Part shown: positions 30,226-35,959 of the stretch, piece after piece | How the letters are laid out: each line of letters begins with the position of its first letter | Position numbering within the stretch: position 1 is the stretch's first letter | Virus record (IMG/VR): IMGVR_UViG_2706796139_000001 | Span: 114,895 to 178,894 of that record | Source of the DNA: Pseudotevenvirus miller | Lineage: Duplodnaviria; Heunggongvirae; Uroviricota; Caudoviricetes; Straboviridae | Length of the DNA stretch: 64,000 bases | Direction: 5' to 3' (one strand) | The notes under the pieces: generated by a model | Seen by the model: the letters and a program-made list of their open reading frames with translations, nothing else | Database searches by the model: none | Told to the model about the DNA's origin: nothing | Translations under genes and position numbers: made by a program

Positions 30226-30259
30226 AAAAAAGGGAACCGCAATGGTTCCCTTTCTTTTT
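30226..30259. terminator. Bidirectional terminator
   Basis: AAAAAAGGGAACC-GCAAT-GGTTCCCTTTCTTTTT between convergent genes. Confidence 0.85.
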
Positions 30260-30722
30260 ATAACTTTCTTATTTCTTTTAACGCTTCTTCTTTGCTACCA
30301 ACGAAGAGGATCGCTTGTCCTCCGGCTTTTCTGAAAGGTAACACCGCTTTTGCTCTGTCGTCTATCAGTATGCCCTGACTCGCATAGGCTGCTTTGTCTT
30401 TGCTGCTTTTGGTGTAATGGAATTCAGGCAAGTATCCTAATTCTCTCAACAACGCTTTTTTCTTCTGCTCTGCTACTTCTTCTGAATCGTACTTCCCAAC
30501 ACTGGTCAAGATCGCAACCTGTCCCAATGTTTTCAGGTGGTGGAACAATTCGAACCCTTCTTTTAAAGGTTTCAATTTTTCGTAGAAGTCAATTTTTGCG
30601 ATTGTTTTTTTAGCCCTTTTCAGTTCTTCTTCTGGCATTCTCGCCGGATCACCATACATCGGTATGAAAGAACCTTCCCAATCAAACAGTACACCATCCA
30701 TATCAAAGAAAAACTTTTTCAT
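30258..30722 (-). CDS. HAD-family 5'(3')-deoxyribonucleotidase-like phosphatase
   Basis: FFFDMDGVLFDW, ILTS, LIDDR; true start ATG 30722 with RBS GAGG. Confidence 0.82.
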   Translation of the reverse strand: MKKFFFDMDGVLFDWEGSFIPMYGDPARMPEEELKRAKKTIAKIDFYEKLKPLKEGFELFHHLKTLGQVAILTSVGKYDSEEVAEQKKKALLRELGYLPEFHYTKSSKDKAAYASQGILIDDRAKAVLPFRKAGGQAILFVGSKEEALKEIRKL

Positions 30723-30771
30723 ATCAATTCCTCGCCTTGTGTGTGCATAATATTCATATATGTTCCCACTG

Positions 30772-31605
30772 TCAACCCCATGTATCAGTTTTAGGTGCGT
30801 ATGCTGCAACTTTCGCCACTAATTCTTTATCAAGCTGATCAATGGATTTTTGCGGTTTACCTTTTGCCTTAACTTTGATGTAGTTAGACTTGACAACAAA
30901 CATACCGCCTTTCTCGGATTTTTTGATTTCGCTGTCGATACCAACTTTGTTAAAGCTGATCCAGATATCACCATCCATATACTGTTTCAGTGAATCGCCC
31001 ATGTTCAGGATCTTCGCCATAGTAAGCGCTGCTCCTTCGTGGGTATCCATGAGGATTTCTTTAGGAACGACACGGTCACGTTTCAGGTTCTGCTGCATAG
31101 CAATATGAACATCGTTCATTACCCAAACAATATGAATGTTTTCTTTCTGGTATCCCAGCGCTTCAACATCACGGGCAATGCTTGCCAGCTTGCTCATGCT
31201 TTTTAGGGTAACGTCGAAAATCAGGTTTGGTTTACGGTCTTCCGGTGCTGCTGCGATACCAGCATAAACACGCGCCTGGTTTTTGTTTGATACGTTGAAT
31301 ACGTCTGCGATCACATGGTGAAGCGTTGCAACGTTATCAGGATTTTTCAGGTTCATCGTTTTAACGTCATGACCTGTTTTTGCTTTAATTTCTGCTGCTA
31401 ATTTGGTGCTACCCATTACCAGCTTTTTCAGTGCGTCAACGTCCAGTGTGATCCCTTCGATACCTAACAGCTTTTCGAGGGTGAAGCCTTTACCGGAACC
31501 CGCACCGCCAGCCAGGATCACGACCTGACCGAATTTTGGATAAGCCTTACCGCCAAACGTAATCAACGCTTCGTCGAGGCTCACAAAGTCTTTGAATGAT
31601 TTCAT
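30772..31605 (-). CDS. Zeta-toxin-like P-loop kinase with capsid-targeting-like N-terminus
   Basis: Walker A LAGGAGSGKG, DVDALK, LIFDVT, GY..HIVWV, KRDRVVP...H; N-terminus MKSFKDFVSLDEA. Confidence 0.72.
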   Translation of the reverse strand: MKSFKDFVSLDEALITFGGKAYPKFGQVVILAGGAGSGKGFTLEKLLGIEGITLDVDALKKLVMGSTKLAAEIKAKTGHDVKTMNLKNPDNVATLHHVIADVFNVSNKNQARVYAGIAAAPEDRKPNLIFDVTLKSMSKLASIARDVEALGYQKENIHIVWVMNDVHIAMQQNLKRDRVVPKEILMDTHEGAALTMAKILNMGDSLKQYMDGDIWISFNKVGIDSEIKKSEKGGMFVVKSNYIKVKAKGKPQKSIDQLDKELVAKVAAYAPKTDTWG

Positions 31606-31632
31606 CTTAGAACTCCAAGGTTTATTTTAATA

Positions 31633-31640
31633 TATTTATT
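31633..31640 (-). promoter_or_regulatory. Late-type promoter for the kinase gene
   Basis: AATAAATA on minus strand about 28 nt upstream of ATG. Confidence 0.55.
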
Positions 31641-31668
31641 GACATCATTTTGCTGATGGGTTTATAGT
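31639..31668 (+). promoter_or_regulatory. Sigma70-type early promoter
   Basis: TTGACA - 18 nt - TATAGT. Confidence 0.7.
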
Positions 31669-31718
31669 GAAGTTGTTCGACGGGTAGGCCGGAAGAACTT
31701 TAACCATAAGGTAACATC

Positions 31719-32615
31719 ATGAAACTTGAACTTAACCGCTTCATTAAAGATGCCGCTGCTGGCGACCAATCAAAATACACATCGCGCCGCAATCACACAC
31801 TAGTCAATGATTTTTATACCCTGCTTGGATTCAAACGCTGGCATACTCCGGTTATGCGTCCCGACTGCGATCCTAAGTGGGATTATTTTCGCTGGAGTAT
31901 TAGAAAACATGCCGTTGTGAAAAAGATCCGTGTGATGTCTTTCCGTTTTCTGTACCCTAACTGCATTATTGAAATCGCAAAAGAAAGAGATATCACCCTT
32001 CCTAACGGATGGAAACTGGCGGATCTGATGGAAACGTTGATCCAGATGCGTAGAGAATACAAAGCTGGGTACATCCGTTCTTTTGAAAAGATGGGTGATT
32101 ATTCCAATAGCGAAAATTACAAAGAATGGCAGTTGATCGCAAAGTACCTGTTAAACTGTGTATGGCATATTATTTGTAATAAAGGTTCCGCGATCAACCT
32201 GGGAGGTCATGAAATCATCGCTCGTGCTCGTGAAAAAGTTTGTGTAGCGGTAAACGAGATCATTTCTTCCGGTGGCATTGTGTTACATGTAAACGTTGAC
32301 GAAATTGTGTATTACGGCGAACAGGTGGAATTTGATAACGTTCACCATGAAAAACACTGGTATGGTATTTTTACTGGTTCCGGTGGCGCTGCTTGGGGTG
32401 ATAACATGGTAATAAGTGGACACATCCCAACGATTAAATTTGACCTTGATGAATGGGAACCGTTTATAGGTGATCGCCGTTCTGCTGGGGAACAACGCGC
32501 ATTGGCTGAACGTATGATTGCAACGCGAATTAAACAATTCACACGCGAAATCATGGATTACATGAACCGTACAAAAGAAGATGTGTTGAAAGAAGTTGAC
32601 TTGTCCGGTGAATAA
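31719..32615 (+). CDS. Truncated, catalytically degenerate family-B DNA polymerase-like protein
   Basis: Motif A-like VMSFRFLYPNCII; fingers LIQMRREYK; motif B-like QLIAKYLLN; motif C-like GGIVLHVNVDEI, in correct order and spacing. Confidence 0.7.
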   Translation: MKLELNRFIKDAAAGDQSKYTSRRNHTLVNDFYTLLGFKRWHTPVMRPDCDPKWDYFRWSIRKHAVVKKIRVMSFRFLYPNCIIEIAKERDITLPNGWKLADLMETLIQMRREYKAGYIRSFEKMGDYSNSENYKEWQLIAKYLLNCVWHIICNKGSAINLGGHEIIARAREKVCVAVNEIISSGGIVLHVNVDEIVYYGEQVEFDNVHHEKHWYGIFTGSGGAAWGDNMVISGHIPTIKFDLDEWEPFIGDRRSAGEQRALAERMIATRIKQFTREIMDYMNRTKEDVLKEVDLSGE

Positions 32616-32651
32616 CTGTAAGCTGTAAAGACTGAAAACAAGGAGATAACA

Positions 32652-32969
32652 ATGAAAACGATTCACTGCCGCGAAGAACACGTTGTTTATTACCACGGAT
32701 CTTGTACTGCTGCTGGGATTGAAAGCATGTTGTTGCCTCCTTGTGCTTCGGATACTCTGTCTGAAAAAGGCAGAAAGAAAAATCTGGATCGTGTTTTCTT
32801 CACTGCTGACATCGGACTTGCTCGGATCTACGCTGGAAGGGCTGCACGTTCTATAGGTGGTGATCCGGTGCTGTATCGGGTTGTGTGTCCGGTTGACGCA
32901 GTGTGCATGAACGACGACAAAGGCGCGAGTGTTTATCATGCTGCATGGGCTTTTTGTGAGGAAGTATGA
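32652..32969 (+). CDS. Minimal ADP-ribosyltransferase-fold protein (Arr/Tpt1-C-like)
   Basis: YYHGS, VFFT.D...A..YA, G.PVLYRV. Confidence 0.6.
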   Translation: MKTIHCREEHVVYYHGSCTAAGIESMLLPPCASDTLSEKGRKKNLDRVFFTADIGLARIYAGRAARSIGGDPVLYRVVCPVDAVCMNDDKGASVYHAAWAFCEEV

Positions 32970-33133
32970 ATGACCGTGTTTTAGCAGTTCTCGTTTTCCT
33001 TCTGGGTTATCGAGTTGAGGTAATGGGTGGTGTCATGGCTATGAAAAACGATCTGACCGCAATTTGGGTTGTTGCTTTAGGTGTGATGTTCACGTTTCTT
33101 TCTTTCGCGATTGTTAACGAGGCAAACGAATGA
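32966..33133 (+). CDS. Small predicted membrane protein (55 aa, not in track)
   Basis: ATGA overlaps at both ends; two hydrophobic segments (VLAVLVFLLG; IWVVALGVMFTFLSFAIV). Confidence 0.65.
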   Translation: MNDRVLAVLVFLLGYRVEVMGGVMAMKNDLTAIWVVALGVMFTFLSFAIVNEANE

Positions 33134-33456
33134 AACTATTTCATGTAGTGTATGGCGGTATCAGAAATATCGATGTACCATTGCTTGCATCAGGAACAAT
33201 TGATACACTTGAAGGTAAGATCGGGAAACGTTTTAAAACTACTGTATCTGAAATCAAAACGGTGTTTGTTGACCATCCGTCAGATATGGAAAATTTAATC
33301 AATACTCTGGATGATTTACTGATTCCATTTGCGGAAGAGTTTCATTATCAATCAGGACTGTATTTGATTGTGACATTTGTTCTAAAAAATGTTGACAACA
33401 GAAATCCAGAAGTGTTAGATTTTATTAGCAAAATTGATTCAATTAAAGGAAAGTGA
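33130..33456 (+). CDS. Hypothetical protein
   Basis: 108 aa ORF coupled to neighbours; AT-rich. Confidence 0.65.
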   Translation: MKLFHVVYGGIRNIDVPLLASGTIDTLEGKIGKRFKTTVSEIKTVFVDHPSDMENLINTLDDLLIPFAEEFHYQSGLYLIVTFVLKNVDNRNPEVLDFISKIDSIKGK

Positions 33457-33797
33457 TTATGAAAATCGTTCAGCGTAATATCAGCGAAGTTAGCCAGGAA
33501 GAAAAAGTTCAGATTCATTTCAAATTTAATGATCTGAAACGTGGTTATGCAGAAATTGCCCGTGTTCATAAGCTGGATAACAGCGACATTTATATGATTG
33601 TCCAGGAAATTGAACGAATCCGCGCTTTCCGTGCCGAAAACCCGAAAGTAAAACGTGTCCTTCGTCGCGTATATGTAAACAAGCATCGTAAGGCTGCGAA
33701 ACCAGTTAAAACCAAACGCGAACCGCGTCCAGATAACAAACGCAAAGCAATCAACGGCGCTATGGCGCTGGCGTTTCAGGAAGCAGGTTTAGTGTAA
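33453..33797 (+). CDS. Hypothetical basic protein
   Basis: Operon-coupled ORF; basic C-terminal half. Confidence 0.7.
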   Translation: MIMKIVQRNISEVSQEEKVQIHFKFNDLKRGYAEIARVHKLDNSDIYMIVQEIERIRAFRAENPKVKRVLRRVYVNKHRKAAKPVKTKREPRPDNKRKAINGAMALAFQEAGLV

Positions 33798-33806
33798 GAG
33801 GTTAAC

Positions 33807-34337
33807 ATGAGTCGTAGACAAAATATGGAACGTTGGTCTGGTGTTGTAACCAGTAGTATTAAACCCGTTGCCACTGTAGTGAAAGAAGTTGTTGAAGAAA
33901 CTCCGGTTAAAACTCAAACGATTGTTTCTTTGAGTGATGAAGAGTTAGAGCACCGTCGCCGTGCGAATCAAATTGAATTCGATCTGCGTATTGCTCGTTC
34001 ATACAACAGCAAAAATGATGATGCTCGTAGCCGAAATTTACAATTCGCTCTTACGCTGAGTGATTGGACTTCGTTAATGAGTCAACCGACCTGTTTGTAT
34101 TCTGGGAAGGTGTTTAGTTCTCGTGGGGATAGTCCGAATTCCCGAACGATGGAACGAATTAACCCGATGTTGGGTTATACCCCAGAAAACACGATCGCAG
34201 TGACAAAAGCCGCTAACAGTGAAAAATCATCACTTGATGCGTTCATGAAGGGTTCCGTAATCCTTCCAGAAGTAAAACTTAAACTGTTACGCAAAGCCGC
34301 GTACCAAATTGAAAAACAATTGAAAATCAAAGGTTAA
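33807..34337 (+). CDS. srd: Srd-like protein (degenerate HNH-like fold)
   Basis: CLYSGKVF...TMERINPMLGYTPENTIAV parallels T4 Srd CAYSGEPF...LERF...GY..GNVIAV. Confidence 0.7.
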   Translation: MSRRQNMERWSGVVTSSIKPVATVVKEVVEETPVKTQTIVSLSDEELEHRRRANQIEFDLRIARSYNSKNDDARSRNLQFALTLSDWTSLMSQPTCLYSGKVFSSRGDSPNSRTMERINPMLGYTPENTIAVTKAANSEKSSLDAFMKGSVILPEVKLKLLRKAAYQIEKQLKIKG

Positions 34338-34341
34338 TATT

Positions 34342-35385
34342 ATGTTTGTGAAATATTCTTCTCTTACGAACCATTACGAAGGTAAGTTCATCAATGGCGT
34401 GATCATGAATGGCCTTACTGGTGGCGTGTGGTGTGCTCGTGAAAAGATCCACGGTGCGAATTTTAGTCTGATGACTTCTGACGGTAAAAACGTTATTCCG
34501 GCAAAGCGTAGCGGTGAAATCCTCCCTACTGAACAGTTTTACGGTTGCGAACCTGTCGTTGCTCGTTATGCTCCGGCGATCCGTAGGCTGTGGGGAATGA
34601 TTCACGGTGCAAGACAATCAAGCGGTATAGATGAACCACTGGAAATTCAGGTATATGGTGAATTTGCGGGGCGTGGTGTTCAGAAAGATGTTGATTACGG
34701 AGAAAAAGATTTCTATGTGTTTGACATTCTTATGAATGGTAAATTCATTGCTGACCATAGTGTTGCTACGCTTGCGGCTGCTGTTAGCTTGAAAATGGCT
34801 CCACTTCTGGCATACGGTACGTTTGACGAGATCCGCGCACTGCCTATCACCTTTGATTCGGTGGTTAACCTGGCTAACAGTCGCGCTATCCCTGCACAGA
34901 ATAACGGCGTTGAGCCTGAGTTTAAAAACTTCATGACTCTGAAAGATGGTGAAGGTGAGAACATCGCAGAAGGTTTCGTGATGAAGCCCGTCGAACCTGC
35001 TTTCATGCCAAACGGTGAACGCGTTGCGATCAAATGCAAAACAACAAAGTTCACAGAGAAGAAGAACAAGCAAGCGAACCGCTTCAATGCTCCGGTTGAA
35101 CTGTCTGAAAACGATAAAGTTAAACTGGATGTGTTTACCTGTTACCTGAACGAAAACCGTGTGAAAAGCGTCCTGTCCAAAATTGACAGCGCGAATCTCA
35201 CCGCAAAAGATTTCGGGCGTGTGATGGGGCTAACGGTACAAGATGCGCTGGAAGAAATCGAACGCAACTATGGCCCGTTTATTGAACAGTTCGAAAATCC
35301 TACGCTGGCGAAGAAAACTTTCACCAACGAAGCATCAAGCATTGTACGCGCAAACTGGGGCGCGATCCTGAACAATGAATTTTAA
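34342..35385 (+). CDS. rnlB: RNA ligase 2
   Basis: REKIHGANFS, YGEFAG, FYVFDI, EGFVMKP, IKCK. Confidence 0.95.
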   Translation: MFVKYSSLTNHYEGKFINGVIMNGLTGGVWCAREKIHGANFSLMTSDGKNVIPAKRSGEILPTEQFYGCEPVVARYAPAIRRLWGMIHGARQSSGIDEPLEIQVYGEFAGRGVQKDVDYGEKDFYVFDILMNGKFIADHSVATLAAAVSLKMAPLLAYGTFDEIRALPITFDSVVNLANSRAIPAQNNGVEPEFKNFMTLKDGEGENIAEGFVMKPVEPAFMPNGERVAIKCKTTKFTEKKNKQANRFNAPVELSENDKVKLDVFTCYLNENRVKSVLSKIDSANLTAKDFGRVMGLTVQDALEEIERNYGPFIEQFENPTLAKKTFTNEASSIVRANWGAILNNEF

Positions 35386-35959
35386 AACTGTTCTCGAAAA
35401 TGCTAAAACGGCTACCCTGATCGGTAGCCGTGAACCCCCCGAACGTATAGCAAACATCGCTATTAAGATTGGACGTGCATTAAGCGATCGAGATATCGTA
35501 GCGTATTCTGGTGGTGCTCCTGGTATGGATAGTCATTTCTTGTTTGACTATGCACCAGAAAAACGACGCATAATTCTTCCTGAGAACGGTTTTAACGGTC
35601 TTTATTCAAATGGTATGGATATCATCGACTATAACGAATTGGATACGTACAAAGCCGCTGACGAAGCGAGAAAGGTAGCTGGACACTTCGACAACCAAAC
35701 GGAATGGGTTCAAAGGCGTTATGCGAGAAATGCAGTTCAAATACTACGCGAAACTTTAGACAACCCAACTGACTTTGTGTTATTCTGGGCTGTTGAAAAA
35801 GAGTTTTGTGTGAAAGGCGGTACAGCTATTGCATCACGTCTTGCCCGATTATATGGAGTTCCCAGTTTTAATCTGTGGAAAGAAAACGTGCTGAACGATG
35901 TTTGTGATACTTTGGGGATTAACATCAAACCTCCAACTTTGGATTTTCTCTGGTGCTAA
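35375..35959 (+). CDS. SLOG/DprA-like Rossmann-fold protein
   Basis: IGSR, SGGAPGMD, YARN.VQIL, GGTA.A.RLA...GVP.FNL. Confidence 0.75.
   Translation: MNFKTVLENAKTATLIGSREPPERIANIAIKIGRALSDRDIVAYSGGAPGMDSHFLFDYAPEKRRIILPENGFNGLYSNGMDIIDYNELDTYKAADEARKVAGHFDNQTEWVQRRYARNAVQILRETLDNPTDFVLFWAVEKEFCVKGGTAIASRLARLYGVPSFNLWKENVLNDVCDTLGINIKPPTLDFLWC

Follow-up and report, generated by a model that had tools for sequence, protein, structure and literature searches.

We analysed a 64,000-nucleotide stretch of DNA, hereafter the window, from a 180-kb T4-like phage of the genus Pseudotevenvirus (RB43/Miller-type; IMG/VR record IMGVR_UViG_2706796139_000001, positions 114,895 to 178,894), and focused on one gene whose product is a small protein derived from family B DNA polymerases (PolB). 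This gene is complete, lies on the + strand at positions 31719..32615 including the stop codon, and encodes 298 amino acids (aa; protein P0001), exactly as given in the initial annotation, which had been made from the sequence alone. It is present in one copy in the phage genome. A 3.4-kb query covering positions 31000–34400 shared 99.2% identity with Citrobacter phage Miller and 91% with Escherichia phage Lw1, and the orthologue in phage Miller, CPTMiller_00234 (99% identity), is annotated as a 'hypothetical protein'. The product matched the protein family phrog_7439 over its full length (E 7.7e-155, residues 1–298 against profile positions 1–292 of 292) and, distantly, phrog_7204, which holds relatives from Aeromonas phages. 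Neither family carries a functional label, and a link to PolB is recorded for neither of them.

Upstream of the gene, a consensus scan detected a sigma-70-type (T4 early-type) promoter-like site, TTGACA-18 nt-TATAGT, at positions 31639..31668 of the + strand, which agreed with the consensus at 11/12 positions and was preceded by A/T-rich sequence. A TTGACA promoter at the head of the operon had been proposed in the initial annotation, and an equivalent promoter is annotated ahead of the orthologue in the record of phage KP27. The ribosome-binding site AAGGT is located at positions 31708..31712 (+), 7 nt ahead of the ATG, and the annotation of Citrobacter phage Miller has one at the equivalent position. 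Judging from these signals, the protein would be made early, from the sigma-70-type promoter, as the first product of an accessory operon. The ratio of nonsynonymous to synonymous substitution rates (dN/dS) was 0.14 against the Lw1-type orthologue and 0.20 against the RB16-type orthologue, which shows purifying selection on the gene. The next gene, with a dN/dS of 0.025–0.05, evolves several-fold more slowly.

The fold of the protein was examined by structure prediction and by several independent searches. The AlphaFold2 model, computed with no templates and from 16 homologues, had a mean predicted local distance difference test score (pLDDT) of 90.5 and a predicted template modelling score of 0.85. 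When the model was compared with the Protein Data Bank (PDB) by Foldseek, the 50 best matches listed were all family B polymerases (best E 8.4e-7), and 122 matches were obtained at E ≤ 0.001. A ranking by VIA-align against 48,161 representative chains, which is independent of Foldseek, placed PolB structures at all of the top seven positions, with Z 8.8–10.3 and 185–209 residues aligned over model residues ~6–232; these seven include herpes simplex virus 1 (HSV-1) polymerase, Pyrobaculum PolB, human Pol alpha, RB69 gp43 and phi29 polymerase. All 10 of the rows listed from the ESM-Atlas were likewise PolB clusters, with template modelling scores of 0.58–0.64 by query, and a search of BFVD returned the family's own uncharacterised relatives first and then mostly polymerases. 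The predicted structure was checked for the palm/fingers topology, as had been set beforehand, and the model matched the palm and fingers of PolB.

We then compared these results with searches at the sequence level. For the small protein, phmmer and a 16-sequence profile yielded nothing significant against PDB sequences, and there was no match in Pfam at E ≤ 0.1 and none in NCBIfam or PADLOC. A search of the genome with PF00136 found the true gp43 alone, with the small protein below the gathering threshold; this gp43 is a separate, complete protein of 901 aa, encoded ~120 kb from the small gene. A hidden Markov model of the small family searched against 1.8 billion proteins recovered 25 small relatives and one true 900-aa PolB (P0039, E 6.8e-4), and hhalign of the small family with P0039 alone gave an E of 1.3e-8. 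The alignment of the 38-member family with 22 gp43-type PolBs by hhalign had a probability of 94.9% and an E of 4.6e-8, and paired residues 71–199 with residues 398–622 of the phage's own gp43. Outside residues 71–199 the sequence alignment is unreliable, and the N-terminal segment and the strands after motif C are covered by the fold comparisons. Five independent lines (the model, Foldseek, VIA-align, the profile search and the profile–profile alignment) thus agree and confirm that the likeness to PolB is real, and the initial description of a stand-alone family B core with a degenerate catalytic centre is fully supported by the model, the fold searches and hhalign.

Of the true PolBs, P0039 is the nearest to the small family in profile comparisons, and its fingers are equally short. 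It is encoded on a 13-kb contig (L044) of a non-T4 phage, amid 7-deazaguanine DNA-modification genes (QueC/D/E/F and GTP cyclohydrolase I). We considered the P0039 lineage as the donor of the small gene and rejected it, because it comes from a non-T4 phage and the close match probably reflects the equally short fingers; the origin is left as a 'gp43-related phage PolB'.

On the basis of the model, hhalign and conservation, the protein was divided into five segments, all on the + strand. Residues 1–63 (31719..31907) form an N-terminal helical segment in the model; fold alignments start at model residues 6–29 and map ahead of the PolB palm, and the residues D16, Y20, R40, W41, R47, P48, D51, P52 and W59 of this segment are conserved in close relatives only. 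As the palm is preceded by these 63 residues only and PF03104 gave no match, the protein has no exonuclease domain, in line with the initial annotation; an Exo III-like alignment of the N-terminus was of low confidence and lacked the catalytic residues. The first palm segment (residues 64–99, 31908..32015) comprises the motif A strand and helix, LYP78-80 with Tyr79, and PNGW95-98, and is defined by hhalign, column counts and secondary structure. It is followed by short, two-helix fingers (residues 100–158, 32016..32192), delimited by hhalign and conservation, with R111 and K115 on the N-helix and Q138, K142, N146 and an aromatic residue at 149 in motif B. The second palm segment (residues 159–232, 32193..32414; hhalign, conservation and secondary structure) contains a helix with R171, the motif C hairpin (N192, D194, E195) and a strand that starts from H209-x-E/D211. 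According to the model, residues 233–298 (32415..32612) consist of a loop, a long helix (256–282) and a low-confidence acidic tail that ends in ...VDLSGE.

After the palm there are only ~66 residues, compared with about 175 in gp43, in agreement with the little thumb of the initial annotation. Some of the PolB alignments from the ESM-Atlas reach residues 281–297, and residues 233–298 could, on the model, be what is left of the thumb or a tail that binds a partner. We saw no KKRY-like string in the protein, in a region after motif C where the alignment is unreliable. In distant members of the family, the acidic tail ...VDLSGE, which is in some cases lengthened to ...CxxEL, reappears as NDLTSGD or NQLRGG; by its sequence, it could be a short docking motif.

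All motif strings previously read from the sequence are present, that is, SFRFLYPNCII (residues 74–84), RREYK (111–115), Q138...K142...N146 and HVNVDE (190–195), and hhalign to the phage's own gp43 gave the same register over residues 71–199. In this alignment, LYP pairs with LYP, PNGW with PNGW, R111 with R474, K115 with K478, Q138 with Q550, K142 with K554, N146 with N558, N192 with D615 and D194 with D617. Tyr79 accordingly occupies the position of the steric gate, PNGW that of the turn before the fingers, and R111 and K115 those of triphosphate-binding residues. In RB69 numbering, we take the steric-gate Tyr to be Y416 and the counterparts of R111/K115 to be R482/K486. At motif A, S74-F75 pairs with a conserved Ser-Phe located just before the catalytic Asp of gp43, and a two-residue gap falls over Asp-Leu. 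No acidic residue is conserved at residues 74–77 in 38 sequences in either register. The loss of the motif A Asp, as initially proposed, therefore stands; its clean exchange for Ser does not, because the Asp has been deleted or replaced by a variable residue. The first position of motif C is Asn in this protein, and across the 38 sequences it is Asn in 17, Tyr in 6 and Asp in 6.

To summarise the likeness to gp43 of the T4/RB69 type, including the phage's own protein, the two share the palm–fingers fold, the order and register of motifs A, B and C, the PNGW turn, the steric-gate Tyr, the Arg and Lys of the fingers, the Lys, Asn and aromatic residue of motif B and the second Asp of motif C. The small protein differs from gp43 in being only a third as long, in lacking the exonuclease and N-terminal domains and nearly all of the thumb, and in having fingers of ~60 residues; its motif A Asp is absent, its first motif C Asp is changed to Asn and its core identity is ~20%.

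The family was searched for without length limits. At 50% identity it formed 25 representative clusters, all of 223–318 aa, and no fused or long form was found. By tblastn, the gene was detected in 180 deposited phage genomes (Klebsiella, Enterobacter, Cronobacter, Citrobacter, Aeromonas, Escherichia and Yersinia phages), a number that is a lower bound for sequenced T4-like phages carrying it; at least one unrelated phage carries it as well, and BFVD adds relatives from Vibrio phage VAP7 and from Aeromonas phages phiAS4 and 65.2. We counted conservation over 38 sequences with identities down to 17%. Only K142 and D194 are invariant (38/38). R111 is kept in 36/38 and K115 in 34/38, with Arg in two more; N146 is found in 34/38, an aromatic residue at 149 in 36/38, and Tyr or Phe at 79 in 33/38. 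H209 is present in 36/38 and Glu or Asp at 211 in 32/38, and position 171 is basic in 31/38. The other polar positions conserved in at least 80% of the sequences are R111, K115, N146, aromatic 149, Y79, Y198, R171, H209 and E/D211, and these align by hhalign with ancestral nucleotide- or metal-binding residues, except for R171, Y198, H209 and E/D211. Neither the net charge nor the isoelectric point (median about 7.9) of the family could tell DNA binding from nucleotide binding.

This pattern of losses and retentions leads us to lean, with somewhat more confidence than doubt, towards the reading that the protein is a non-polymerising remnant of PolB that binds deoxynucleoside or nucleoside triphosphates ((d)NTPs) and is used as a dispensable early accessory protein. 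According to this reading, a phage PolB would have been miniaturised to a palm with short fingers, a small N-terminal helical segment and one C-terminal helix, and would have lost the metal-binding Asp of motif A, the 3'-5' exonuclease domain, nearly all of the thumb and a recognisable KKRY primer-contact motif, whereas the residues for the incoming nucleotide (Tyr79, Arg111, Lys115, Lys142, Asn146, aromatic 149 and Asp194) would have been kept under selection. A (deoxy)nucleoside triphosphate would be held in the ancestral pocket, probably with one metal ion bound through Asp194 and the triphosphate, and a primer would not be extended.

Two arguments bear on the absence of extension and the retention of binding. 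Because the motif A Asp, nearly all of the thumb, any recognisable KKRY and the exonuclease domain have been lost, primer extension is not expected; because the steric-gate Tyr, the basic residues of the fingers, motif B and the second motif C Asp have been kept over deep divergence, (d)NTP binding is expected. In RB69 gp43, D411 coordinates metal ions directly, and the substitution D411A completely abolishes polymerisation with a minute effect on dNTP binding (PMC3792054). The conserved Tyr/Phe at the steric gate suggests deoxynucleotides as the ligand, as far as can be read from the sequence. Binding of dNTP, one of the two ligands raised initially, is thus consistent with the conserved pocket; binding of a primer, the other, is less likely, since the protein lacks nearly all of the thumb and we recognised no KKRY-type motif.

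It might be supposed that the protein is still an active, template-directed DNA polymerase with unusual catalytic residues, as it has an intact motif B and an intact second Asp in motif C, and some active PolBs do without the first Asp of motif C (PMC7544198). However, the Asp whose removal abolishes the activity of RB69 gp43 (PMC3792054) is missing family-wide in motif A, the thumb is a 66-residue remnant, there is no exonuclease domain and no recognisable KKRY, the Pfam PolB model fails to detect the protein, and the genome encodes a full gp43. We consider an active polymerase extremely improbable.

Several points weigh against the (d)NTP-binding reading. The early timing of expression is predicted from the promoter consensus only. 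A stoichiometric 'sponge' for dNTPs seems quantitatively implausible when set against cellular dNTP pools. In addition, H209, E/D211 and R171 are strongly conserved and yet have no aligned counterpart in gp43, so that a new catalytic site is possible. Finally, a distant member of the family, P0030 (273 aa), is encoded next to a helicase gene, which also fits a role as a replisome scaffold. The last two points each favour a different explanation, and these are considered below with the genes on which they bear.

Directly downstream of the PolB-like gene, at positions 32652..32969 (+), lies a gene for a 105-aa protein of the ADP-ribosyltransferase (ART) fold, which belongs to phrog_2110 and was modelled by AlphaFold2 with a pLDDT of 82. 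By VIA-align, it matched the NAD lobe of KptA/Tpt1 (Z 9.1, root-mean-square deviation 2.1 Å over 77 residues) and the rifampin ADP-ribosyltransferase Arr (Z 8.5), and Arr and KptA were also its top matches by Foldseek; VIA-align showed no counterpart of the substrate-binding lobe of Tpt1. No + strand terminator was found between the PolB-like and ART genes, and the sequence of the locus suggests that they are probably co-transcribed. Between this phage and Aeromonas phage UP87, the ART protein is 70% identical and the PolB-like protein 30%, and the pair recurs in a third, very divergent lineage. In RB69-type phages, the ART gene corresponds to RB69ORF040c, between gene 41 and dmd.

We considered whether the PolB-like/ART pairing is obligatory and rejected this, as the PolB-like gene was upstream at only 11/30 viral ART loci. 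The identification of the ART protein with the anti-DarT factor AdfA (gp61.2) was likewise rejected: AdfA is ~2x as long and has been described as lacking known homology (PMC11257639), and RB69ORF040c is separate from 61.2. Elsewhere, we found the same Arr/Tpt1-like ART domain fused to the C-terminus of a Toprim DNA primase in a 602-aa protein of a 461-kb jumbo-phage contig (L033:1489-3294), with 25.6 bits for Pfam Arr-ms against a cut-off of 25 and an E of 4.8e-31 for the phrog DNA primase. The domain also occurs within phage proteins of 288 aa (L029:2437-3300) and 850 aa (L032:2449-4998) that have no assigned function.

The conserved residues that lack a counterpart in gp43 could belong to a neo-functionalised enzyme, whose pocket would bind a nucleotide and whose rebuilt centre (Asp194, His209, Glu/Asp211 and Arg171) would run a different reaction; dNTP hydrolysis and nucleotidyl transfer to water, protein or a small acceptor are candidates, possibly together with the ART-fold neighbour. 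H209, E/D211 and R171 are as conserved as the residues of the ancestral pocket, and, by the topology of the palm, the strand from residue 208 would run beside the motif A strand. In RB69, the carboxylate of E686 on the neighbouring palm strand is spatially near D411 and matters for catalysis (PMC3792054). However, the equation of H-x-E with the D-R-E686 strand of RB69 received no support from hhalign on sub-alignments, and E195 is not conserved beyond the close subfamily. As for the ART protein, it lacks a substrate lobe, and its fusion to Toprim shows that it recurs with replication-type nucleotide-binding modules. In most genomes, however, its gene is found on its own (604 phage records for the ART gene, 180 for the PolB-like gene), and the two are unlinked, 42 kb apart, in Aeromonas phage 65. 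A previously unknown PolB-derived enzyme that acts on dNTPs or nucleic-acid ends through a D194/H209/E/D211/R171 centre, possibly in partnership with the ART protein, is thus fairly unlikely in our estimation. If it were true, the rebuilt enzyme might hold the substrate for the ART protein and alter nucleotide pools or mark DNA or RNA ends early in infection, for host takeover or counter-defence.

The second alternative concerns the replisome. In a 12.5-kb metagenomic phage contig (L043), the P0030 gene overlaps the start of the helicase gene in a non-T4 replication module, which encodes a ligase, a Sak4-like annealase, a single-stranded DNA-binding protein, a Cas4-like exonuclease, the PolB-like protein, an intein-bearing DEAD/ResIII helicase, a processivity factor, a YAcAr-family protein and a PolB; this last PolB is very divergent, with 697 aa and the motif C NTDG. 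Such an arrangement could indicate a non-catalytic replisome accessory or scaffold, comparable with herpesvirus UL8 or the C-terminal half of Pol epsilon, in which polymerase-type contacts with helicase, primase, clamp or gp43 were kept and nucleotide binding plays no part. There is an established class of inactivated PolBs that continue to serve in replication (PMC4304020, PMC7544198), an HSV helicase–primase chain of a length fitting UL8 was among the fold matches (VIA-align Z 7.7), and the conserved acidic C-terminal tail could dock partners. However, a scaffold gives no reason for invariant K142 and D194 and near-invariant R111, K115 and N146 at 17% identity. The rapid evolution of the gene, several times that of its neighbour, and its absences from related phages described below also speak against it, and its location in T4-like phages is an accessory region, not that of the replication genes. 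We therefore regard a purely structural role as distinctly unlikely.

We compared the surroundings of the gene among phages. It is located just after hoc in Pseudotevenvirus, Slopekvirus (KP27), Yersinia phage JC221 and Aeromonas phage UP87, and opens an operon that runs into a DUF2774 gene, srd and then rnlB (rnlB in all but UP87). In Pseudotevenvirus, KP27 and JC221, a convergent HAD-type nucleotidase pair and a kinase gene lie between hoc and the PolB-like gene, and the gene of the zeta-toxin-like kinase is divergent from the PolB-like gene. In the window, these are a zeta-toxin-like P-loop kinase gene at 30772-31605 and then a HAD-type 5'-nucleotidase gene at 30258-30809, both on the – strand; the pair is kept in Slopekvirus and JC221, not in UP87. 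On the + strand, a 55-aa hydrophobic open reading frame (32966-33133), probably a small membrane protein, overlaps the stop of the ART gene, with a similar-sized gene at the same position in Miller, KP27 and JC221. A DprA-like/SLOG-type protein is encoded 3' of rnlB (35375-35959, +) and gave weak PADLOC matches, over its N-terminal 50 residues, to ShosA (E 1.4e-5) and PsyrA.

In close relatives, the zeta-like kinase and ART genes flank a gene for an HNH homing endonuclease (L012:2407-2961, L013:2407-2961) exactly where the PolB-like gene would lie; the endonuclease matches phrog_99 (E 1.8e-50) and carries an AP2-like domain. The PolB-like gene is absent from the whole of one such genome, which is complete at 144 kb (L012). 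It is also absent from RB69-type phages, which carry the ART gene. The PolB-like gene is therefore dispensable, and its distribution is patchy. As a gene that is dispensable and fast-evolving, it would be expected to work as an accessory or regulatory nucleotide-binding protein and not as a replicase; counter-defence, partnership with the Tpt1/Arr-like ART protein and a replisome accessory function are candidate roles.

The same observations could be explained by a protein-mimic decoy, in which the palm/fingers likeness would titrate away a host defence sensor or inhibitor specific for the phage replicase. The early-type promoter, the patchy distribution, the replacement by a homing endonuclease, the fast evolution and the position in a patchwork of accessory genes with nucleotide- and NAD-related functions would all suit such a decoy. 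However, surface mimicry is doubtful at ~20% identity to the phage's own gp43 in the aligned core and with much shorter fingers, conservation is concentrated in the buried pocket and not on surfaces, and no model of the defence library matches the PolB-like protein. A decoy of this kind accordingly seems improbable.

Several inactivated PolBs are known from other systems. UL8, F12 and the C-terminal module of Pol epsilon resemble the small protein in that they are derived from PolB, have a disrupted catalytic centre and exist beside a working replicase (PMC4304020, PMC7544198); in poxvirus F12, for example, most of the catalytic palm residues are replaced (PMC4304020). The helicase-fused inactivated pPolB of polinton-like viruses falls in the same class (PMC5499653). 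In contrast to UL8, F12 and the Pol epsilon module, which keep the full exonuclease-plus-polymerase architecture, the small protein of 298 aa is a bare palm–fingers core; its nucleotide-binding residues were selectively kept, and it is dispensable and fast-evolving. The primer-independent PolBs (piPolBs) differ in another way: they are active enzymes of full size in which the motif A Asp and the exonuclease domain are still present. Like the small protein, they lack the first motif C Asp (PMC7544198). By its features, the small protein is a PolB-derived pseudo-polymerase, and it stands apart from every described case through its bare core and the selective retention of residues for the nucleotide.

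We searched the literature for a second PolB, small or degenerate, encoded by T4-like phages and found no paper describing such a protein, and the earlier remark that it had not been described for these phages held in those searches. A few GenBank orthologues are auto-labelled as 'DNA polymerase' or 'DNA polymerase delta catalytic subunit', which indicates that annotation pipelines had already caught the likeness to PolB.

Inactivated PolBs are thus known from eukaryotes, archaea, herpesviruses and poxviruses, all of which keep the full-length architecture. In the present family, selection has kept the nucleotide-binding half of the active site, and the half for metal A and the primer has been discarded. 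The family would therefore be a natural experiment that separates dNTP binding from catalysis in a well-studied group of polymerases, and the protein, being small and confidently folded, is amenable to direct testing in vitro and by phage knockout. Its genomic surroundings abound in NAD- and nucleotide-directed functions, and it may represent a novel type of phage accessory protein, be it a nucleotide sensor, a regulator or a re-tooled enzyme.

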